Notes: generated by a model from the letters alone, not told the origin. A stretch of DNA of 64,000 nucleotides from an uncultured delta proteobacterium (GCA_963727445.1 CAVSGI010000009.1:512001-576000), one strand, 5' to 3'; positions 2,631 through 61,983 are shown, counted from the first letter of the stretch. Numbers and translations are program-made.

Positions 2631-2658
2631 CGGGGACGGTCTACACTTTTCAACTTTC
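2631..2658. repeat. Solo copy of the 28-bp RAYT-associated end repeat CGGGGACGGTCTACACTTTTCAACTTTC
   Basis: Identical to the repeat at 54256-54283; begins directly after the TGA of the sigma gene, between convergent genes. Confidence 0.95.
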
Positions 2659-51238: not shown

Positions 51239-52291
51239 GTGGCGAGCGCTTCAGAGTCAGCGGCGGCAGGGGTCGGCGACGGGCCGGAGACGACCGCCGA
51301 CGTCGAGGTCATGGACGCGGAGCTCCTCTTGCGTCTCTCCGGGCCGAACAGCGCGCATCTGAGGACGCTCGAAGGTGCGCTCGGGGTGAGCCTGGGCCTT
51401 CGGGGTCACACCATTCTGGTGCAGGGGCAGACCGACGCCGTCGACCAGGCGGTGCGGGTGCTCCTCGAGCTGGTCGATGTGCTGGGGCGCGGGAAGAACA
51501 TGTCCGGTGTGGAGATGGCGCGCGCGGCGCGGACGCTCCAGCGCTATCCGGAAGTGAAGCTGCGCGACCTCTTCGACGACGTGGTCCTGGTGGCGTCGCA
51601 GAAGAAGGCCATCGCTCCGAAGGGCATCGCGCAGCAGATCTACATCCAGGCGATTCGCGACTTCGACGTGGTCTTCGGCATCGGGCCGGCGGGTACCGGC
51701 AAGACTTACCTGGCGATGGCCATGGCCGTGCGCGCGCTTCAGTCGAAGCTGGTCAAGCGGATCATCCTGACGCGGCCGGCGGTCGAGGCCGGCGAGAAGC
51801 TGGGGTTCTTGCCGGGTGATCTCGCGGAGAAGGTGAATCCGTATCTCCGGCCGCTCTACGATGCGCTCCACGACATGATGGACATCGACAAGGCGCAGGC
51901 GTTGCTCGCCCGCGGCACCATCGAAGTCGCGCCGCTGGCGTTCATGCGCGGCCGGACGCTCAACGACAGCTTCGTGATCCTGGACGAAGCGCAGAACACC
52001 ACGCCGGACCAGATGAAGATGTTCTTGACGCGCCTCGGCTTCGAGTCGAAGGCGGTGATCACCGGCGACGCGACGCAGACCGATCTACCCGAAGGGCGGC
52101 GCAGCGGGTTGGCCGACGCGGCGAATCTCCTCGGAAAGATAGAGGGGATCCGCGTCTGTCACTTCACCGACGCCGACGTGGTGCGGCACCCCCTCGTGCA
52201 ACGCATCGTCCGGGCGTACGATGGGCGCGACGCCAGGCGCGAGGCGCAGCGTCAGGCCGAGGAAGAGGAGAGCGGGGGAGACGAGACGTGA
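51239..52291 (+). CDS. phoH: PhoH family ATPase
   Basis: GPAGTGKTYLA, LTRPAVEAGEKLGFLPGDL, MRGRTL, LDEAQN, VVRHPLV; start is 51239 or 51311. Confidence 0.95.
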   Translation: MASASESAAAGVGDGPETTADVEVMDAELLLRLSGPNSAHLRTLEGALGVSLGLRGHTILVQGQTDAVDQAVRVLLELVDVLGRGKNMSGVEMARAARTLQRYPEVKLRDLFDDVVLVASQKKAIAPKGIAQQIYIQAIRDFDVVFGIGPAGTGKTYLAMAMAVRALQSKLVKRIILTRPAVEAGEKLGFLPGDLAEKVNPYLRPLYDALHDMMDIDKAQALLARGTIEVAPLAFMRGRTLNDSFVILDEAQNTTPDQMKMFLTRLGFESKAVITGDATQTDLPEGRRSGLADAANLLGKIEGIRVCHFTDADVVRHPLVQRIVRAYDGRDARREAQRQAEEEESGGDET

Positions 52292-54255
52292 GCAACTCGA
52301 CCACGACTCGAACGCCGGGGGCGACGTCCCCAGCGGGATTCATCGCGAAGCGGATCAAGGCCGATCCGCGTATCGATCGCGATGAGATGGACGTGGTGGT
52401 GGCTGGTCAGGTGGTCGAGATCACCAAACGAGATGCGCTCCTGGTGGCGGTGCCCACCATCAGTCTGGCGCACGACGCGCTCGAGCCTTACGCGGAGCGG
52501 ATCGCCGAGGGGCGAGCGGGGCTGATCCTGGTCGGCGTTCCCCCGACCGGGTTTCTCGAGACGCTGCCCGAGCGTGCGGTGGTGGCGTTGGTCGACGGGA
52601 CCTTCGGCGACGACGCGCTCTACCTGACCTTTCAGGGGATGCTCGAGCGGGTGGAGATGCGCCTCACGGACGACCGCCGGCGGCGCACCCTCGATCGCTA
52701 TCGGTACGAGCTGGGCGAGCTCGTCGAGATCGCGCGCGCCTTGAGCCAGGAGCGCGACACGTCGCGCCTGCTGAACCTGATCCTCGAGAAGAGCCGATTC
52801 ATCACCGGTGCGGATGCCGGGAGCATCTACGTCCTGGAAGGGGACGATCCGGACTTCATGAATCGGAAGCTGCATTTCAAGCTTTCGCAGAACGAGTCGT
52901 GTGAGTTCGAGTCGAGCGAGTTCACCATGCCCGTGTCGACCCGGTCCATCGCGGGCGCGGCGGCGGTGACGCGTTCGCCGATCAACATCCCGGACGTCTA
53001 TCGGATCCCCGAGGAGACCCCGTACGGGTTCGACAAGAGCTTCGACGAGAAGGTCGGCTACCACACCAAGTCGATGATCACGCTGCCGATGATCTCGGCG
53101 GAAGACGACGTCATCGGGGTGATTCAGCTCATCAACAAGAAGAAGCACCCCGAGAAGCGACTGGTCGAGAAGGCCGACTTCGATGCGGAGGTCGTGGAGT
53201 TCGGCGAGCGCGAAGAGGAGCTCCTGCAGACGCTCGCCTCGCAGGCGGGCATCGCGCTCGAAAACGCGCTCCTCTACGAGGAGATCAACCGCATCTTCGA
53301 GGGGTTCGTGCGCGCGAGCGTGCAGGCGATCGAGCAGCGCGATCCCACGACGAGTGGTCACTCGCTCCGGGTGAGCGTGCTGTCGTGCCGGCTGGCCGAG
53401 ATCGTGGATACGGTCGATGCCGGGCTCTACGCGGACACCAGCTTCACGCGGCGGCAGATCAAGGAGCTCGAGTACGCCTCGCTCCTGCACGATTTCGGGA
53501 AGATCGGCGTGCGCGAGAAGGTGCTGGTGAAGGCGAAGAAGCTCTATCCGCACGAGCTGGCGGCGGTGCGGGCGCGATTCGACTACCTGCTGAAGGCGGG
53601 CGAGGTCGAGATGCTGCAGACGAAGATGCAGCTCGTGGCGTCGGGCGCGTCGAAGGAGGAGCTCGAGGCCGCGGAGATGGCCTACGAAAAGAAGCGAGGC
53701 GAGCTGCAGGGCGCGTATCAACTGGTGCTTCAGGCGAACGAGCCGACGGTGATGTCGGAGGGCGACTTCACGGCGGTGGGTGCGCTCGCCGAGCGGACCT
53801 ACGTGGGGCCGGATGGATGCAGCCATCCACTTCTGCACGACAACGAGGTGAAGTCGCTTCAGGTGACGAAGGGGTCGCTGAACGATCAGGAGATCGAGGA
53901 GATTCGATCACACGTGACGCACACCTTCGACTTCTTGTCGCGGATCCCGTGGGGCAAGACGATGCGTTTCGTGCCGCAGATCGCCGGCGCCCACCACGAA
54001 AAGCTCAACGGCAGCGGCTACCCGCGCGGCGTCAAAGCGGACGCGATCCCGCTCCAGTCGAAGATCATGACCATCGCAGACATCTTCGACGCCCTCACCG
54101 CGCGCGACCGCCCCTACAAGAAGGCCATGCCCGTCGAGCGCGCCCTCGCCATCCTCGGCTACGAAGTCAAAGACAACCACATCGACGCCGAGCTCGTCCG
54201 CCTCTTCACCGAAGCCAAAGTCTTCGAAGCCGTCCAAGACGACCTCTCCTACTAA
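52288..54255 (+). CDS. GAF + HD-GYP cyclic dinucleotide phosphodiesterase
   Basis: GAF GVIQLINK; RDPTTSGHS, LLHDFGKIG, HHEKLNGSGYP, IADIFDALT..RPYK. Confidence 0.93.
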   Translation: MSNSTTTRTPGATSPAGFIAKRIKADPRIDRDEMDVVVAGQVVEITKRDALLVAVPTISLAHDALEPYAERIAEGRAGLILVGVPPTGFLETLPERAVVALVDGTFGDDALYLTFQGMLERVEMRLTDDRRRRTLDRYRYELGELVEIARALSQERDTSRLLNLILEKSRFITGADAGSIYVLEGDDPDFMNRKLHFKLSQNESCEFESSEFTMPVSTRSIAGAAAVTRSPINIPDVYRIPEETPYGFDKSFDEKVGYHTKSMITLPMISAEDDVIGVIQLINKKKHPEKRLVEKADFDAEVVEFGEREEELLQTLASQAGIALENALLYEEINRIFEGFVRASVQAIEQRDPTTSGHSLRVSVLSCRLAEIVDTVDAGLYADTSFTRRQIKELEYASLLHDFGKIGVREKVLVKAKKLYPHELAAVRARFDYLLKAGEVEMLQTKMQLVASGASKEELEAAEMAYEKKRGELQGAYQLVLQANEPTVMSEGDFTAVGALAERTYVGPDGCSHPLLHDNEVKSLQVTKGSLNDQEIEEIRSHVTHTFDFLSRIPWGKTMRFVPQIAGAHHEKLNGSGYPRGVKADAIPLQSKIMTIADIFDALTARDRPYKKAMPVERALAILGYEVKDNHIDAELVRLFTEAKVFEAVQDDLSY

Positions 54256-54525
54256 CGGGGACGGTCTACACTTTTCAACTTTCTCCGCCGGTTTCGCGCC
54301 CTGCGATCGCGATCCACCGGGGACGGTCTACACTTTTCAACTTTCTCCGCCGGTTTCGCGGTCGCTGACACCCCGCGATAGTGCGCTCATCACCATTTCG
54401 ACGTGCTTCAATGCCTGAGCGATCGATCCACCGGGGACGGTCTACACTTTTCAACTTTCTCCGCCGGTTTCGCGGTCGCTGACACCCCGCGATCCACCGG
54501 GGACGGTCTACACTTTTCAACTTTC
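54256..54525. repeat. Left repeat array: 4 copies separated by duplicated fragments of the transposase 3' end
   Basis: 54318-54423 is identical to 54498-54603; all internal copies are preceded by GATCCAC. Confidence 0.92.
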
Positions 54526-55552
54526 TCCGCCGGTTTCGCGGTCGCTGACACCCCGCGATAGTGCGCTCATCACCATTTCGACGTGCTTCAATGCCTGAGC
54601 GATGGCGGCTTCGTTCCGGTTGAGCAGCGCCGAAGCGGCTGAGTCGCTGATTCCCAAGTGCGTGGCCATTTCACTGGCGTTTCGATTCAGGCCACGCGAC
54701 CACACGATGACCGCAACGCGACGAGCCGTGGTCAGAGTGCGCAAGCGGCTTCTGGATCTCATTGCGGCTTCATCGACCCCGAGGACGCGAGCCACGACGT
54801 GAACCACCGTTGCACAATCCATGGGCTCAGAGTTGCGACTCGGCAGCGAGGGGGGAGCAACCACCGGCACACGCATGAGCTGACCGTGGTCGTCCAAGTC
54901 GAAAACGGGCGGCGCGACTTGCACCGGGCCACCGGATTCGTGGCGGGCCTCTCGTTGTAGCCGGGGGATTCTGTCTCCCGCTGAGGGCATCGTTTCGAGG
55001 CTCTTCGCGGTGTCGGTTTACGAATTCGTCGAACGACTTCCTGCCGGAGGCACGACTGCTGAACCCCGACAGCTCCAGCCCGAGTTCGATGTGGAGCCAC
55101 GAAGGGGCGCCGGTCGGCTCGAGGTAGAGCCGGTGGGAGGTCCAGCTCGACTCCCGCGCCAACCTCACCACTCCGGCCCGCGGGGGGTTGTTGCTGACGT
55201 AGGACACCAGATAGCCAACAGCGTCGGCGCCACAGATGATGGTCGTGGGACGGCCCGCGAACAGAGGCCCACGGCGTTCCTGGCGCTTGTTCATCCACGT
55301 CGCGAAGCCGCCGTTGAGCGCCTTCATGAAGCCCTCGAGATCGAGCGTGCCAGCCATGGCCACCAAGTGGATGTGATTGCTCATCACGCCATAAGCGATG
55401 ATGCGCCAATCGGTGCGTGCCATGACAATGCCGAGCCGCCGGAGGTATTCGCCGCGTTCTGCCGCGCAGGTGATGCGGAAGCCCCCGTCGACGAAGCGAC
55501 AGACGATGTGGACGATGGAGCCTGGAGGTAGGAGTCGAGGTTGCCTGGGCAC
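54517..55552 (-). CDS. REP-associated tyrosine transposase (RAYT/IS200-like Y1) with C-terminal DnaA-C-like HTH; one frameshift near 54978
   Basis: MPRQPR..IVHIVCR, YGVMSNHIHL (HUH), N...RRGPLFAGR, YVSNNP.RAG (catalytic Tyr); C-terminal VARVLGV..MRSRSR..ARRVAV..EMATHLGISDSAAS in ORF 54517..54990. Confidence 0.88.
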
Positions 55553-55598
55553 GACCCCTTGTCGGCTGGTGAGCGGCGAAGTTGCGGACCTGAGCGAC

Positions 55599-55772
55599 GA
55601 AAGTTGAAAAGTGCAGACCGTCCCCGGTGGCGTGTCCCCGGTGGCGTGGTGAGTGGCGAAAGTTGAAAAGTGTAGACCGTCCCCGGTGGCGCCGTCCCCG
55701 GTGGCGCCCGGTCCCCGGTGGCGCCCGGTGGCGTGGTGAGTGGCGAAAGTTGAAAAGTGTAGACCGTCCCCG
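55599..55772. repeat. Right repeat array: 3 inverted 28-bp copies plus GTCCCCGGTGGCG stutters
   Basis: GAAAGTTGAAAAGTGTAGACCGTCCCCG x3; 13-mer at 55620, 55634, 55679, 55694 and 55711. Confidence 0.92.
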
Positions 55773-57290
55773 TTAGCGCATGATGGCTACTAGGGTGGCG
55801 GTGATGATGGCGATGAGGATGCTGGCGCCGGCGACGGCCAGCCAGTTGACTTTGGATTGGGGGCGCGTGGGGGGGATGGCTGCTTGGGGGTAGGAGAGCT
55901 CGCTCCAGTTCGGGCGGTTCATTTCGACGGTCCGGGCGGTCTCGATCTTGTCTTCTCGGGCGGGAGGGGTGGTGCGTTTGTCGGTGGTGCCGATGGCGTC
56001 TTCGAGGGTGGTGCCGGCGTCGCCGCCCGGGGAACCGTCGACCTCCTCCGGTAGGATGAGCGGCTTGGTGGGGCTGGCCTCGAGGTCCTGCGGCGCCTCG
56101 CCGCGAAGCGCCGCCATCGCGCGGCTCGGCGGCGGGCGTCGCCCTCCATCACTCGTCGGGTTCGTGTCCCGCTCCGAGATCGACACCGGCTCGAGCGCTC
56201 CAGGTGGCGGCGTCAGATCCATCGCCGTCCGCCGCATCGTCCGCTCGCCCTCCATCGGCTCGCTCGACCCCAGCTCCTCACTCAGCTCCACCGACACCTG
56301 CGTCGGCGCCGACTGAATCTCGTCCACGTCGTCGTACGCTTCCCGCCGCCGTCCCGACTCGGACGGCTGCCGGTGCCTCCGGCTCCCCTGACCCAGCACC
56401 TCGTCGATCGCATCGTCCAGGGTCTCGAAGACCACGCCCCCCGCGAACGGCTCGAGCGCCAGTCCCAGGGTGCGAATCGACGGGTAGCGGTCGTCCGGAT
56501 TCGGCGCCATCGCCTTCAGCACCACCTCTTCGAGCTTCTCCGGCACGTCGATGTTGATCACCGTCGGCGGTCGCGGATCCGTGTTGGTGATCTTGAAGAA
56601 GAGGTCGGGTAGCGAATCTCCGTCGAAGGGCAACTCGCGCGTCAGCCCTTCGTAGAGCATCACCCCCACCGAGTACACGTCCGCCCGCTGGTCTACCGTG
56701 CTCGAATCGGCGATCTGCTCCGGCGCCATGTAGTACGGACTCCCGAGGAACGTCCCCGCGCCCGTCAGCTTTCCGGTGGCATCCGGATCGCGCAGCTTCG
56801 AGATCCCGAAGTCGAGCACCTTCGCCCCGCCGGCGCGCCCGCGCCTCGGCAGGCACAAGAAGATGTTGTCCGGCTTGAGGTCGCGATGCACCACACCACG
56901 TTCGTGCGCCGCGAACACACCGCGCAACGCCGGCATCAACGTCTGCACCAGATCCTTCGGGCTCGGCGCCCCGCGGTCGAGATACTCCCGGAGCGACTCC
57001 CCGCGTAGCAGCTCCAGCACGAGGTAGAGCGACTCCTCGTACCGCCCCGCGTCGTAGATCTCCACCACGTTCGGATGGTCCACCGCGTTCGCCGCCCGCG
57101 CCTCGCGCAGGAATCGCGACGCCACCGTCGGATTCTCCGCCAGCTGCGGGTAGAGCCACTTCAATGCGACCCGCTTGCCGATCAGCTCGTGAGTCGCTTC
57201 GAAGACGACTCCGGCCGCACCCTTGCCGAGCTGCCGCTCCAGTCGATACTTCTCGGCGATGACCTCTCCGGGCTCGGGGACATCACTCAC
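55773..57290 (-). CDS. Membrane Ser/Thr protein kinase
   Basis: LGKGAAGVVF, VALK, VHRDLKPDN, LDFGISK, GSPYYMAPE; C-terminal TM; start taken at GTG 57290. Confidence 0.92.
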   Translation of the reverse strand: MSDVPEPGEVIAEKYRLERQLGKGAAGVVFEATHELIGKRVALKWLYPQLAENPTVASRFLREARAANAVDHPNVVEIYDAGRYEESLYLVLELLRGESLREYLDRGAPSPKDLVQTLMPALRGVFAAHERGVVHRDLKPDNIFLCLPRRGRAGGAKVLDFGISKLRDPDATGKLTGAGTFLGSPYYMAPEQIADSSTVDQRADVYSVGVMLYEGLTRELPFDGDSLPDLFFKITNTDPRPPTVINIDVPEKLEEVVLKAMAPNPDDRYPSIRTLGLALEPFAGGVVFETLDDAIDEVLGQGSRRHRQPSESGRRREAYDDVDEIQSAPTQVSVELSEELGSSEPMEGERTMRRTAMDLTPPPGALEPVSISERDTNPTSDGGRRPPPSRAMAALRGEAPQDLEASPTKPLILPEEVDGSPGGDAGTTLEDAIGTTDKRTTPPAREDKIETARTVEMNRPNWSELSYPQAAIPPTRPQSKVNWLAVAGASILIAIITATLVAIMR

Positions 57291-57344
57291 GTCTAAAGAG
57301 TATCCCCAGCGATGCTCACCGAGAAGGGTGTATGGTTCCCCCGG

Positions 57345-58250
57345 ATGGACGACCGCATCCACGATGGCGTTCTCGATCTCGTCGGCCGAACCCCCCTGGT
57401 GCGCCTCTGCAAGCTCTCACCCGAGGGCGGCGCCGAGGTCTGCGCCAAGCTGGAGTCCGCAAATCCGGCTGGCAGCGTCAAAGACCGCCCGGCCCTCTCG
57501 ATGGTCCTGGCGGCCGAGGCCGCGGGCGAGCTCGCCGACGGCGCGACCATCGTCGAGGCCACCAGCGGCAACACCGGCATCAGTCTCGCCATGATCTCCG
57601 CCGTTCGCGGCTATCGTTGCATCCTCGTCATGCCCGAGGACATGAGCCTCGCCCGCCGCGAGATCCTCCGCCTCTATGGGGCTGAAGTGGTCTTGACCCC
57701 GGCCGAGGAGGGAATGGCGGGCGCCGTCGACCGCGCCGAGGAGATCCGCAGCGCCGAAGGCGCATGGATGACGCGCCAGTTCGAAAATCCAGCCAACCCC
57801 GAGATCCACGCGATCACCACCGCTGAAGAGATCTGGCGCGCGACCGGCGGTTCCCTCCACGCTTTCGTCGCGGGTGTCGGCACTGGCGGCACCCTCACCG
57901 GCGTCGGCCGCGTCCTCAAGGAGCGAAACCCCGACATTCGCATCTACGCCGTGGAGCCACGCGCGAGCGCCGTGCTTTCCGGAGGTAGGCCCGGACTGCA
58001 CGGGATCCAGGGCCTGGGGGCGGGCTTCGTCCCGGAAGTGCTCGACCGGGCGCTGATCGACGAGGTCCTGACCGTCACCGATCTGGCCGCGGAACGCTCC
58101 ATGCGTCGCCTCGCGCGCGAAGAAGGCCTCCTCGTGGGGCCCTCCGCGGGCGCCAACGTCCACGCTGCCATCGAGGTCGCCGACGCGCTCGAAAAGGGCC
58201 AGCGCGTCGTCACCATCCTGTGCGACACCGGCGAGCGCTACCTCTGCTGA
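57345..58250 (+). CDS. cysK: Cysteine synthase A
   Basis: KLESANPAGSVKDR, EATSGNTG, GVGTGGT, HGIQGLGAGF, DTGERY. Confidence 0.95.
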   Translation: MDDRIHDGVLDLVGRTPLVRLCKLSPEGGAEVCAKLESANPAGSVKDRPALSMVLAAEAAGELADGATIVEATSGNTGISLAMISAVRGYRCILVMPEDMSLARREILRLYGAEVVLTPAEEGMAGAVDRAEEIRSAEGAWMTRQFENPANPEIHAITTAEEIWRATGGSLHAFVAGVGTGGTLTGVGRVLKERNPDIRIYAVEPRASAVLSGGRPGLHGIQGLGAGFVPEVLDRALIDEVLTVTDLAAERSMRRLAREEGLLVGPSAGANVHAAIEVADALEKGQRVVTILCDTGERYLC

Positions 58251-58365
58251 AACCCCCCGCACCTTTCGAGACGGGTCCTCATGTAGGCAAAAGTAGGTGC
58301 AAGCCCTTGGCCGCCCTGCCTTCACCATTCCAAAACGGCCCCCGTCCTGGTACCTCAGTACGACG

Positions 58366-59058
58366 ATGAAGCGGGCTTTCCTTCGCCATATCGCGCTGTC
58401 CGCCGTCCTGTTCTGCGCCATCCCCGTCGGCCTGCTCGCCTCACTGCCGAGCACGGCCGAGGGCCAGTGCATCGACGAGGCGATCCGGGACGAGCTCAAC
58501 GCCCGCCGTCGTTACCGCGGCGTACAGGAGCGGCTCTTCCAGAAAGCCGGCCGGCACGAGCTGAGCGTGATGGGCGGCGTCTATTCCGCCGACCTGCTCT
58601 CCTCTAGCTATCTGCTGCAAGGCGCCTACACGTTCCACGTCACTGAAGAGCTCGGCCTCGAAGCCAGCTTCGCCTGGAGCCAGGCCGACTCGAAGATCGT
58701 TCGCATCATCGAGAACGCCACCGGTGTCGAGCTCATCCGCGAGCAGGCAGACGTCTTCATCTATCAGGCGCACATTCTGTGGTCGATCGCGTATGGAAAG
58801 GTCCGGTGGTTCGGTAGCTCGATCTCGCGCTTCGATTTCTACCTGGCCCTCGGTGGCGGCGTCACGGACAACCAGACGGCGCGCGGCCTGACCTTCAGTG
58901 GCGGCATCGGGTTCAAGTTCTTCGCCGGCGAGTGGTTCGCCTTCCGCATCGACGTGCGCGACCAGGTGCTGCAGCAGGAGGTCCTCGGCGAGTCCACGAT
59001 CACCAACAACATCGCGGCCACCCTCGGGTTGTCAGCGTTCATCCCGTGGTGGAACTGA
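58366..59058 (+). CDS. Myxobacterial outer-membrane beta-barrel protein (GltA/GltH-like family)
   Basis: Signal peptide; VQERLFQKAGRHEL, WSIAYGK..FDFYL..GGG, amphipathic strands. Confidence 0.8.
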   Translation: MKRAFLRHIALSAVLFCAIPVGLLASLPSTAEGQCIDEAIRDELNARRRYRGVQERLFQKAGRHELSVMGGVYSADLLSSSYLLQGAYTFHVTEELGLEASFAWSQADSKIVRIIENATGVELIREQADVFIYQAHILWSIAYGKVRWFGSSISRFDFYLALGGGVTDNQTARGLTFSGGIGFKFFAGEWFAFRIDVRDQVLQQEVLGESTITNNIAATLGLSAFIPWWN

Positions 59059-59079
59059 AGAACGAAGGGTAGGCAGGCC

Positions 59080-59910
59080 ATGCAACACCGGCTTCGAGCG
59101 CTCGTCGCAGTCTTTCTCGCCCTCTTCTTCGTGGTCCTCGCTGCGTCGGATGCGAGCGCGCAGCGCCGCCGTCGACGCCGTCGCCGGCCGCCCCAGGAAA
59201 CGCAGCAGACCGAACAGGAGACCCCCGACGCGGGCCAGAGCAGCGCGGAAGGCGCCGCCGAAGGGCAGGTCGCCGGCGACGGCGATGGCGAGGGCGAAGC
59301 CGAGCTGCCTCCCGCCGAGTTCGAAGGCGGTGACGCCGCGGACGAGACTGAAGGCGCTGCCGCATCGGCGAACGAGTCGGGTGAAGGCGGCGCTGGCGCG
59401 GTCTACGAGGAAGAGGAGGAAGGCCCCGACCTCGGCCCGATCCGCGAGGAGTTCACCGCCATCATGGACGAGCTGGTACAGGTACGGAGCCGCGTCGCGG
59501 TCCTCGGCCGCCAGCTCTTCCGCACGCGGATGCGCGTGGTCGTCCAGAACCGCGCCGGCGACGACCAGACCCTCGCCAAGCTGGTCCTCAAGCTGGATGG
59601 CGCGCCCATCTTCCAGGGCGAGGGCCGCGAGGTTCCGGAGGACGGCGCCCAGGTCTTCGATGGATTCGCCGCGCCCGGCCCCCACGTGATGACCGTCGAG
59701 GTCGAGCAGCGCGCCCGCGCCGACGACGACTATCGCTACGAGCTCCGCGACACCTATCGCTTCCAGGTCATCCGCGACCGGCTCATCGAAGTGGAGATCG
59801 TCCTCGACGACGACTCCGACATCGCGGAGGACTTCGCCGACGACGAGGAAGGCGAGTTCGACGTCCGCACGCGCATGCGGGTCGCGACGAGGGCGCTGGG
59901 CGACGACTGA
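59080..59910 (+). CDS. Exported protein typical of Glt-paralogue clusters
   Basis: Signal peptide, acidic linker, coiled coil, LDGAPIF..FDG..PGPH domain. Confidence 0.7.
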   Translation: MQHRLRALVAVFLALFFVVLAASDASAQRRRRRRRRPPQETQQTEQETPDAGQSSAEGAAEGQVAGDGDGEGEAELPPAEFEGGDAADETEGAAASANESGEGGAGAVYEEEEEGPDLGPIREEFTAIMDELVQVRSRVAVLGRQLFRTRMRVVVQNRAGDDQTLAKLVLKLDGAPIFQGEGREVPEDGAQVFDGFAAPGPHVMTVEVEQRARADDDYRYELRDTYRFQVIRDRLIEVEIVLDDDSDIAEDFADDEEGEFDVRTRMRVATRALGDD

Positions 59911-61983
59911 TGCTCCGGGGCGCGCTCACCATCCTCCTCTGTCTCGCGGCCGCCGCTCCGGCCTGGGCGCAGGACGGCGATCTCCCGCCGCCCGAGTTCG
60001 GTGGGAGCGATCGTGAGGCGGCCGGCGAAGATGCCGGCGAGAGCGCCGCGTCCAACGATGAAAGCGACGTCACCCCCCTTCAGACCTATCTCACCGCCCT
60101 CGCCGATCGCCGCCTGCTCTCGGAGGAGACCGGCTCGGTGGAGCGCCTGCGCGAGCTGGTGCGCACCGGCGAGGACCTGTACCTGAACGAGCGCTATGGC
60201 GAGGCCGCCCTCAACCTCTTCGAGGTCGCGGAGAGCCCGCAGTTCGCCGACTTCGTCGACCTCGACGAGTTCCGCGGCGCCGAGTTCATGCTGGCGCGCA
60301 GCCTCGAGCAGCTCGGCGCGCTCCGCACCGCGTCGCGCTATCTCGAGAAGATCATCGAGCGCGGCCCCGACGACGTCTACTTCGGCCCGGCGATGCGCAA
60401 GTACGTCGACGTCGCCCTGGCCAGCGGAAACATCGCGGCCGCGATTGAGCGTCTCGACGATCTCGGCGCCGGTGACATGGACATCACCGACGACAACGAG
60501 AACGAGATCTTCTACCTGCGTGGCCGCGAGCGGTACACCGAGGGCGACTTCGGCCCGGCCGAGGAGTTCTTCTCCGAGATCACCCGGCGGAGCCGCTGGT
60601 ACGCCGCGGCCCAGTATCTGCGCGGCGTGATGGCCGCCCGGCAGGGCGACCTCGAGACCGCAGAGAACCACTTCTGCACCATCGCCGAGCAGGGTGACGA
60701 CGACCGCTTCACCTTCTACGTCGACGACCGCTACTTCGAGGTGAAGGACCTCGCCCGCCTCGCCCTCGGCCGCGTCGCCCACGAGGGCCTGCGCTCGGAC
60801 GACGCCTTCTACTACTACTTCCAGGTCCCCGCCGACTCCGAGCACGTCGCCGAGGCCCTCTTCGAGGCCGCCTACTCCATGTACGAAGGCAACGACATGG
60901 AGACCGCGATCGACCTCCTCGACCAGCTCGAGGCGCGCTTCCCCCAGTCGGCCTGGGTCGACGAAGCGTCCCTGCTCCGCGGCTACGTCCACCTCGGCCG
61001 CTGCGAGTTCGAAGAGGCGAGTCAGCTCTTTCAGCGCTTCGCGACGCGCTTTCAGCCCATCGTCGAAGAGATCGATTCGATCCTCGAGAGCCCCGCGCGT
61101 CAGGAGGGCCTCTACGAGGAGCTCCTCGCCGAAGAGGACGCGCCGCCGCCGACCGAGGGTGAGGAGCTGGACACCACCACCCGCGGTCTGCTTCTCGCGA
61201 TGCTCCGCGTCGACCCGCAGTTCTACCGCCTGCATTCCGACGTCCGCACCCTCGACGCCGAAGCGGCGCGCGCGGGTCGCCTCTCCAACGACGTGCGCGC
61301 GATGCTCGGCCGAGTGCAGGGCGAGGACGCCCCGGTCGCGGCCGCCGAGCTCGACGACGGCTATGACGAGATCGGCGAGGTGCGCCGCGAGGTCGACGAC
61401 GCCAAGGCGGTGCTCCGCAGCCTGACGGCGCAGGTCGACGCGATGCGCGCCGCCGGCGCCAGCCGCGATCAGCATCGCGCCTCTGAACGAACAGCTCACG
61501 GCCCTCGGCAATCGCATCGGTGAGCTCGAGCAGCGCTTCCGCCACACCGCCGCCGAGCTCCGCGAGCCCACGTCGGTCGCCGGCGGCGAGGGCGAAGGCG
61601 AGCTCGAGTCGCTCCTCCGCCACGACATCGCCAGCGCGCGCCGCCTCCCCTCGCGCGTCGCAGCTGCGCGCGCGCACATGATCGACGCGGCCAACGACGC
61701 CGCGCTCCACGGCCTCAGGCAGCTCCGTGGTCGGGTCGGCGGCGAGCTCCGGCGCGCGCGAATCGGTCGCATCGACGCGGTCATGGGCAGCAAGCGCCGC
61801 GTCGAGATCCAGATCGAGAGCCTCGCGGCCGGTCGCTTCCCGCCGGAGCTCCTGGACCCGCTCCGCATCCAGGGGCTGCTTCGAGACGACGAAGAGTATT
61901 GGCCTTTCGAAGGGGAGCTCTGGGAAGACGAGTTCGACGAGACCGATCCCATCGACGAGCTCCTCGACGAGGAGGAGGAGTGA
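59910..61983 (+). CDS. GltC-like exported TPR protein (frameshift near 61470)
   Basis: TPRs; C-terminal EEYWPFEGELWEDE motif in ORF 61678..61983. Confidence 0.75.

Follow-up and report, generated by a model that had tools for sequence, protein, structure and literature searches.

The closest described counterparts of the locus reported here are the REPIN-RAYT systems, or REPtrons, of E. coli, Pseudomonas and Stenotrophomonas, in which a low-copy HUH/Y1 gene, coding for a REP-associated tyrosine transposase (RAYT), lies between inverted copies of a dispersed high-copy repeat, the repetitive extragenic palindrome (REP). According to the openly available text of PMC8266576, TnpA-REP cleaves single-stranded DNA at CT or CA, 5' and 3' of the REP, leaving a Tyr-5'P link and a free 3'OH; cleavage at CT/CA is known there for the E. 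coli, Stenotrophomonas and Marinomonas enzymes. The tandem REP clusters of Pseudomonas include flanking sequence, as stated in the available text of PMC3116915. The cellular role of REP/RAYT systems and their long persistence are an open question. We analysed a 64,000-nt stretch of DNA from an uncultured delta proteobacterium, hereafter the window (contig 9, 512,001-576,000, of genome G000, which comprises 9.47 Mb in 27 contigs at 66-70% G+C). Two host genes converge there at 54.2-55.8 kb and enclose, on the minus strand, a RAYT-like gene with arrays of a 28-nt repeat, F1, on either side in inverted orientation. The silent sites of both host genes are distorted in mirror image around this element, and a two-zone, strand-specific halo of the same kind is confirmed around outward-facing F1 ends as a general feature of G000.

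The window holds a REPtron-like master locus of a repeat family of 173 copies. It resembles the described systems by its inverted doublets and tandemly grown clusters, and by a GTAG on the complement of the unit. It differs from them in that the single F1 unit is not a palindrome, in that the protein is only distantly related (25 bits versus an NCBIfam cut-off of 80, and no match in PDB), and in that a paralogue of this protein carries a helix-turn-helix (HTH) tail similar to the C-terminal part of DnaA. The 5' ends of the two arrays face outward and, on each side, the outer copy is preceded by CTAA on its own strand. Both flanking genes, a GAF/HD-GYP signalling gene on the left and a Ser/Thr protein kinase gene on the right, read toward the element, and the TAA stop codon of each abuts the outer repeat and sits within this CTAA.

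The preliminary description of the window, based on hand counts, had reported that the fourfold-degenerate codons of these two genes end nearly always in C close to the element and mostly in G farther away. Recounting gave exactly the same figures. In the HD-GYP gene, the 31 fourfold codons at 54061-54255 end in C (29), A (1) or G (1), versus 39 G, 14 C, 3 A and 2 T for the 58 codons at 53521-53820; in the kinase gene there are 32 C, 4 A, 4 G and 1 T among the 41 codons at 55773-55982, versus 30 G, 2 C, 1 A and 1 T among the 34 codons at 56223-56399. The best change points lie 196 bp from the outer repeat for HD-GYP and 319 bp for the kinase, and they define the near and far zones listed in Table 1. 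For the solo repeat at 2631, the run of fourfold codons ending only in C or A that was reported for the adjoining gene end holds for the last 12 codons; the near zone is milder there (9 G versus 25 C in 180 bp) and is found on the 5' side only. Over all fourfold sites of G000 there are 720,556 C versus 540,056 G, and the median skew per gene is -0.15, so that the G-rich gene bodies are atypical, as well as the pure-C ends. In a single-change-point scan of 5693 genes, the kinase gene ranked 3rd and the HD-GYP gene 25th, and 18 of the top 60 genes were within 48 bp of a repeat copy and combined a G-rich body with a C-only end.

For the genome as a whole, the sense-strand G/(G+C) value at fourfold sites was stacked around 90 outward-facing F1 ends, separately for genes reading toward and away from the repeat, with bootstrapping over loci; the genome baseline is 0.428. 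In the toward genes the value was 0.11 [0.07-0.17] within the first 60 bp, 0.20 at 61-120 and again at 121-180 bp, 0.32 at 181-240 bp, 0.37 at 241-300 bp, 0.43 at 301-360 bp and 0.49 at 361-420 bp; it reached 0.50-0.51 from 421 to 1300 bp, was 0.46 at 1.3-3 kb, and stood at 0.43 at 3-4 kb, at 4-6 kb and beyond 6 kb. The away genes gave, for the same successive intervals, 0.69 [0.59-0.81], 0.61, 0.64, 0.54, 0.41, 0.39 and 0.40, followed by 0.34-0.39 (421-1300 bp), 0.37-0.38 (1.3-3 kb), 0.38 (3-4 kb), 0.40 (4-6 kb) and 0.42 (beyond 6 kb). Since the away genes are the mirror image of the toward genes, both zones follow the DNA strand and not the mRNA or the sense strand. Twofold sites were shifted as well: in toward genes, the purine-ending codons had A at a frequency of 0.41 in the first 60 bp and 0.34 in the next 60 (genome, 0.158), and the pyrimidine-ending codons had T at 0.05 and 0.08 (genome, 0.168); in away genes, T was at 0.36. 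In the near zone, therefore, the strand reading toward the repeat is depleted in G and T and enriched in C and, to some extent, in A. The A and T frequencies at fourfold sites were noisy, the non-coding flanks displayed only a weak excess of C over G and of A, diluted by composite elements, and the 3'-side flanks of the single-orientation clusters (16 flanks) were confounded by degenerate inverted partners.

The flanked genes are core genes whose domains run to their ends, such as RlmL, CysS, MaeB, HemN and GGDEF genes (Pfam), and the away genes with a near-zone signal include an ABC ATPase, a ferrochelatase and a DUF2330 gene (Pfam), as well as a regulator that is TetR-like by eye. That the away signal stems from genes called on the wrong strand was rejected upon inspection of nine cases: in the five that bear the signal, the away strand encodes a clear protein N-terminus, and three of these five have Pfam matches. 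To the right of the kinase gene, four plus-strand genes (57312-61523) have fourfold skews of -0.53, -0.26, -0.42 and -0.43, versus the median of -0.15; this C-skew fits a far zone reaching over genes that read away from the element.

The preliminary description had linked the skew to the repeats, and the other repeat copies do show it with the same orientation: the near zone deviates negatively in 47 of 51 evaluable flanks (Wilcoxon, 4e-9) and the far zone positively in 39 of the 51 (7e-6). The strengths of the two zones are correlated across flanks (rho -0.36, p 0.01), and the boundary between them is situated 177-706 bp out, with a median of 280, for the 27 flanks with a strong split. The strength of the near zone is independent of copy number (rho 0.10, p 0.49; -0.30 at single copies); the far zone shows a weak increase with the size of the cluster (rho 0.28, p 0.049) and is two-sided in 9 of 15 clusters. 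Gene ends without repeats behave otherwise. In genes more than 3 kb from a repeat, sense-strand G/(G+C) remains flat toward the stop codon, at 0.41-0.44, which led us to reject a general C-enrichment of gene 3' ends. At most two G in the last 30 fourfold sites were found for 10 of 42 repeat-adjacent genes versus 12 of 5506 others, and at most two in the last 45 sites for 4 of 41 versus 0 of 5235; abrupt switches are thus very rare at repeat-free gene ends. The non-repeat genes with extreme ends are mostly C-rich throughout, and two of them precede a second repeat family.

According to the preliminary description, the skew tracks the element rather than the protein or the replichore. This is borne out by strand-following in genes of both orientations at dozens of loci, and the orthologues without the element lack the profile. 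F1 was found in only one (G000) of the 41 genomes searched. In G001, a genome of the same genus that is 86% complete in 590 contigs, the kinase orthologue (67% identity) is uniform at about 0.4-0.5. In four other families, the HD-GYP orthologues lack both the C end and the G body and are less G-rich at the same aligned sites, and full-length ones end in a tail similar to that of the G000 protein, with Y as the last residue. CysS, MaeB and HemN, which are repeat-flanked in G000, display no zone in G005. RlmL is the one site with repeats in both G000 and G005, and the zone is present in both; the G005 gene has the same C end, its TAA stop codon being placed directly before a different repeat. 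The G001 orthologues of HD-GYP and RlmL are cut by contig ends (C533 and C88) at residues 290 and 478.

The reciprocal comparison started from 13 repeat-abutted open reading frames (ORFs) of G005, which gave 11 hits in G000; three were dropped for low identity or a long C-terminal extension and 8 were kept. The 7 pairs in which the G000 orthologue is repeat-free had values of 0.26-0.67 in G000 versus 0.05-0.24 in G005. A foreign allele or a recombined gene end was rejected on the ground that amino-acid identity to orthologues is normal in the near zone: for the last 100 codons versus the rest, it is 0.70-0.90 versus 0.59-0.81 for HD-GYP, 0.72-0.77 versus 0.70-0.89 for CysS and 0.60-0.93 versus 0.72-0.85 for MaeB. 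Polarisation by parsimony with G001 and G005 (544 sites in three genes) assigned 80 C>G versus 14 G>C changes to the G000 branch in the far zone, but it merely mirrors composition because synonymous sites are saturated.

The halo depends on the type of repeat end. Among the 90 outer ends, the junction motif is CTAA in 26, CTGA in 6 and TTGA in 12. The 10 ends of the TTGA/T type have no halo, as compared with the 80 other ends (p 0.0006), and the opposite end of the doublet often has one. TTGA/T ends usually form one side of a doublet with a conserved spacer of about 44 nt, and they sometimes display a positive skew; upstream sequence is common to 4 of the 12 outer ends preceded by TTGA, and the mobile unit may extend further on that side. 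The CT dinucleotide at -4/-3 was not supported as the marker of halo-bearing ends, since the halo is also carried by CCAA, GAAA, GATT and other ends and is missing from TTGA/T ends alone. In the 22 genes whose stop codon abuts a co-oriented repeat, TAA and TGA are used 11 times each and TAG never, versus 3.3% TAA, 79% TGA and 17.7% TAG over all called G000 genes; this excess of TAA reflects either a YTRA insertion target or a G-to-A pressure on stop codons. G000 contains at least three further families with a GGGGACG head (on contigs 2, 3, 10 and others), namely F2 with 64 copies, F3 with 29 and F4 with 25. For F2, which is cognate to the second RAYT paralogue, the toward genes have a near zone of 0.18-0.36 within 300 bp; F4 has a near zone in genes of both orientations, and F3 has too few sites. 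G005 possesses its own repeat family (46 copies), for which 30 pooled flanks gave 0.25 in the first 180 bp and 0.42-0.51 beyond, 27 of the 30 being below 0.40 near the repeat.

Strand-following, end specificity, the reciprocal tie to the repeat and the near-absence of unoccupied zones argue for a process that operates at the DNA level and is anchored at the repeat end. The explanation that we favour, at a probability slightly below even, is an asymmetry of long standing, anchored on the element, in the way DNA is broken, exposed as single strands and resynthesised. The repeat end would be nicked in vivo on its own strand, probably by the predicted RAYT enzyme; the published enzymology fits such a nick, with the 5' end blocked and the 3'OH of the flank left free. 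The adjoining stretch of the nicked strand would next be removed, and the gap refilled over a damaged single-stranded template, which could account for the polarity of the near zone; misinsertions, C and A on the refilled strand, would be fixed where synonymous or tolerated. Candidate sources of the G-to-C changes are insertion of C or A opposite abasic sites, an insertion bias of the polymerase or a selection-like force. As for the far zone, its polarity and scale would fit the 3' single-strand tails formed upon resection of breaks. Such events, if recurrent, would make REP/RAYT-type arrays fixed sites of strand-specific cutting and resynthesis, and thereby local host mutators that continuously recode about 300 bp of neighbouring genes and, to a lesser degree, as much as 3 kb; this appears possible to us, with the balance tipped somewhat against it.

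Several points weigh against this explanation. It postulates nicking and single-strandedness at these repeats, and it leaves the opposite far zone without a worked-out cause. The RAYT-like ORF scores 25.3 bits with NCBIfam REP_Tyr_transpos, for which the cut-off is 80, and the gene is split into two overlapping frames (54517-55552, minus strand). F2 shows no far zone, and its away genes no clear effect (0.35-0.51). The absence of near-zone growth with copy number is what a pre-existing target would also predict. In G001, the CysS, MaeB and HemN genes are mildly C-enriched (6/45, 11/45 and 4/24 G in the last 100 codons), and no repeat was found at their ends; that fragmented genome may hold an unassembled repeat. 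Gene coordinates come from a crude in-house ORF caller (5867 genes in G000). Finally, a toy rate model in which G>A and T>C are raised about 3.7-fold, which fits the twofold sites, gives a fourfold G/(G+C) of about 0.35 with A at 0.11-0.14; the observed fourfold near zone, 0.11-0.20 with A at 0.05, departs from it. Pure deamination of single-stranded DNA was therefore rejected, as it yields too little loss of G and too much A; the data call for a direct exchange of G for C, or else for a selection-like force in favour of C. Element-directed mutagenesis, as put forward in the preliminary description, is partly supported: the four refuting conditions named there all came out in its favour, and strand-following favours a process at the DNA level, but the simplest form of single-strand damage is insufficient in the model.

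The halo could also be a footprint in which the RAYT has no part, the long inverted doublets forming hairpins or cruciforms at which replication stalls or host hairpin nucleases cut, so that recurrent two-sided break repair (resection, 3' tails, resynthesis) would leave the footprint. The single 28-nt unit with its flanks is not palindromic and folds no better than shuffled sequences on either strand (z 0.06 and 0.26). Stems are possible only between plus and minus copies, and most clusters consist of inverted pairs in which 28-bp stems could form; the GTAG on the complement of the unit is inside the would-be stem of the doublet hairpin. A far zone that is frequently two-sided and grows weakly with cluster size agrees with such a process. 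End resection of breaks leaves 3' tails, and the polarity of the far zone, G-rich on the strand ending 3' at the repeat, together with its kilobase scale, would fit such tails. A symmetric process predicts, however, that both ends of a doublet are affected, which is not the case for TTGA/T ends; the near zone reaches the same strength at single copies and at clusters, it is confined to the 5' side at the solo copy of the window, and its polarity is left unexplained. No convincing oriented Chi-like motif was found at the 27 zone boundaries, the best 7-mer being present at 9 of 27 versus 12 of 162 controls with a foreground of biased composition. We hold this explanation to be unlikely. A preference of the repeats, inserted as single-strand transposition products, for strands already rich in C and poor in G would make the equal strength of the near zone at single copies and large clusters expected; the siting of copies after a short YTRA-like motif, directly after the stop codon in 22 genes, is a sign of site selectivity, the mild C-enrichment of the three G001 orthologues goes in the same direction, and RlmL carries two different repeat families at the same site in two genomes. 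Unoccupied zones are nevertheless essentially absent (the 0 of 5235 versus 4 of 41 above), runs such as 1 G out of 49-53 sites cannot be due to chance at p = 0.43, the ends of repeat-free genes are flat, and all 7 usable reciprocal pairs lack the zone where the repeat is absent. A target preference, moreover, gives no reason for the far zone or its link to near-zone strength, and we regard it as quite unlikely.

Selection for a C-rich, G-poor strand leading into the repeat, either for Rho loading (rut-like) or to keep the hairpin free of competing pairing, has in its favour that base weights account for the fourfold and twofold shifts together, with G disfavoured about 3-4-fold and C favoured about 2-4-fold, and do so better than transitions alone. 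Rho loading sites are generally recognised by RNA that is rich in C and poor in G, and the effect of F2 is seen only in genes reading toward the repeat. For F1 and F4, the skew is nonetheless on the same DNA strand in the 5' parts of away genes, where the sense transcript has the opposite composition; rut sequences within a translated region are normally masked, repeat-free orthologues do without such a zone at their ends, and neither the G-rich far zone nor the exemption of TTGA/T ends has a rationale under selection, which makes it very unlikely to us. As a last group of rivals, the profile could mark a replichore boundary or a tract of foreign recombination, or simply be normal for the genes concerned. 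The cumulative GC skew of the window does peak at 55-56 kb, where the two genes converge on the element. Along the 939-kb contig, though, the skews of 20-kb segments are within about +/-0.04, with +0.021, -0.011, +0.022 and +0.021 around the site; within the limits of a 27-contig assembly there is no lasting change of sign, and a replication terminus, which the preliminary description had named as a refuting condition, was rejected. The same pattern is present at dozens of dispersed loci, near-zone identity is normal and orthologues have no such profile, so that we discount this last group of explanations almost entirely.

The preliminary description knew of no such footprint for REP/RAYT systems. 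None was described in the openly available main texts searched, which included those of PMC3116915, bioRxiv 2021.07.10.451892 and PMC8266576. Replication strand asymmetry is alike in that G+T are in excess on one strand and A+C on the other, synonymous sites showing this most clearly, with a change of sign at a defined point; asymmetric cytosine deamination is its usual explanation in the text available for PMC2031905. The halo differs from it by spanning 0.3-3 kb, by having two sign changes per flank mirrored at dozens of clusters, and by reaching about 95% C locally, whereas the contig-scale skew is weak and unrelated. In strength and base pattern, the nearest analogue is animal mitochondrial DNA, with its AC-rich L strand and GT-rich H strand; the third-position bias, A/C versus G/T, is set there by the strand exposed during strand-displacement synthesis (PMC1794132, in the text available). 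That bias concerns a whole small replicon, whereas the halo is short, sits on a mobile repeat of a 9.5-Mb chromosome and has an opposite second zone. Kataegis and bacterial break-proximal mutagenesis show mirror-image strand polarity that decays over hundreds of bases to kilobases; these are somatic or experimental mutation clusters, and the halo is an evolutionary steady state filtered by protein selection, in which breaks are only presumed. Rut regions are C-rich and G-poor over roughly 100-300 nt at gene ends. The halo differs from them in following the DNA strand even in oppositely transcribed genes and in lying within translated sequence; a rut-like transcript is obtained for toward genes only, sense G/(G+C) being 0.69, 0.61 and 0.64 in the first 180 bp of away genes.

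Such a footprint in host genes would be the first sequence-only evidence that a REP/RAYT system acts on chromosomal DNA in vivo, and it gives a polarity, a reach and an end specificity that are open to experiment. If such arrays do act as local mutators, the halo would record, within the genome itself, the sites, the strand and the reach of the action of a domesticated HUH transposase, and would represent a new class of element-directed mutational landscape in bacteria. Analyses of codon usage, GC skew or selection are biased for repeat-adjacent genes, the ends of which, stop codons included, would have been rewritten. The pattern could also help to find, in any genome, which repeat families are active and which of their ends work.

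Table 1. Features of the window (positions counted from its first nucleotide)
Feature	Position	Strand	Remarks
Solo copy of the 28-nt repeat	2631..2658	+	directly after the stop codon of gene 2139-2630
GAF/HD-GYP signalling gene	52288..54255	+	ORF reading toward the element; Pfam HD_5, GAF, HD
Far zone, left	52288..54059	+	sense strand G-rich: 184 G of 292 G+C fourfold sites
Near zone, left	54060..54255	+	almost pure C: 1 G of 30 G+C fourfold sites
Left repeat array	54256..54540	+	4 identical copies, starting at 54256, 54318, 54432 and 54498; extended unit of 43 nt
Exact 116-nt duplication	54308-54423 and 54488-54603	+	repeat copy plus 3' end of the HTH ORF
ORF with DnaA-C-terminal-like HTH	54517..54990	-	matches the C-terminal part of a single-frame 327-aa paralogue
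RAYT-like Y1/HUH transposase ORF	54827..55552	-	Pfam Y1_Tnp, 26.4 bits (cut-off 23)
Right repeat array	55599..55772	-	3 copies, at 55599 (1 mismatch), 55658 and 55745; stuttered partial copies between them
Ser/Thr protein kinase gene	55773..57362	-	ORF reading toward the element; Pfam Pkinase
Near zone, right	55773..56091	-	3' end of the kinase gene: 7 G of 57 G+C fourfold sites
Far zone, right	56092..57362	-	body of the kinase gene: 163 G of 223 G+C fourfold sites

The outer arms of the two arrays are 97% complementary over 35 nt, and the arrays bracket the transposase gene as inverted repeats. Because the 116-nt duplication includes flanking sequence, the left array must have grown by a tandem duplication that took in its flank. 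In G000 as a whole, the 173 F1 copies (at most 3 mismatches; 174 when counted at up to 2 mismatches to the 23-nt core) form 53 clusters, usually with the layout ++--, and 34 clusters start with a plus copy, end with a minus copy and sit at least 20 kb from contig ends. With respect to the called genes the clusters are intergenic, save one that contains a gene and one with a 13-nt overlap. Stuttered partial copies occur at the 5' ends of repeats, at 55626-55745 in the window and in many other G000 clusters (for instance near 1,052,915 on contig 10). The stutter unit consists of the last 6-10 nt of the flank and the first 8-9 nt of the repeat, present two or three times; these partial copies resemble the scars that repeated cutting and rejoining would leave at that junction.

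In the RAYT-like ORF, an HIH motif and the Tyr of a YVSNN stretch are visible, and both align with the paralogue encoded on contig 10, a single-frame protein of 327 aa (L077 324-1307). A phmmer search of the protein against PDB sequences gave no match at E<=0.01. The catalytic ORF aligns to residues 12-186 of the paralogue and the HTH ORF to residues 223-280; the homology of the former stops near residue 180, after which its frame looks non-coding. As judged from these alignments, the frameshift would lie within 54792-55012 and may reflect a pseudogene, a sequencing error or a programmed event. The window gene and the contig-10 paralogue are the two RAYT-like protein matches in G000; the latter, at 487,559-488,613, is bracketed by family F2. 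Five more matches to the RAYT profile are weak (22-52 bits, all below cut-off) and map to contig 9 (168,748, 292,196 and 305,618) and contig 10 (416,239 and 985,744). Two of these, 13 kb apart, score identically and are possibly IS200-like copies.

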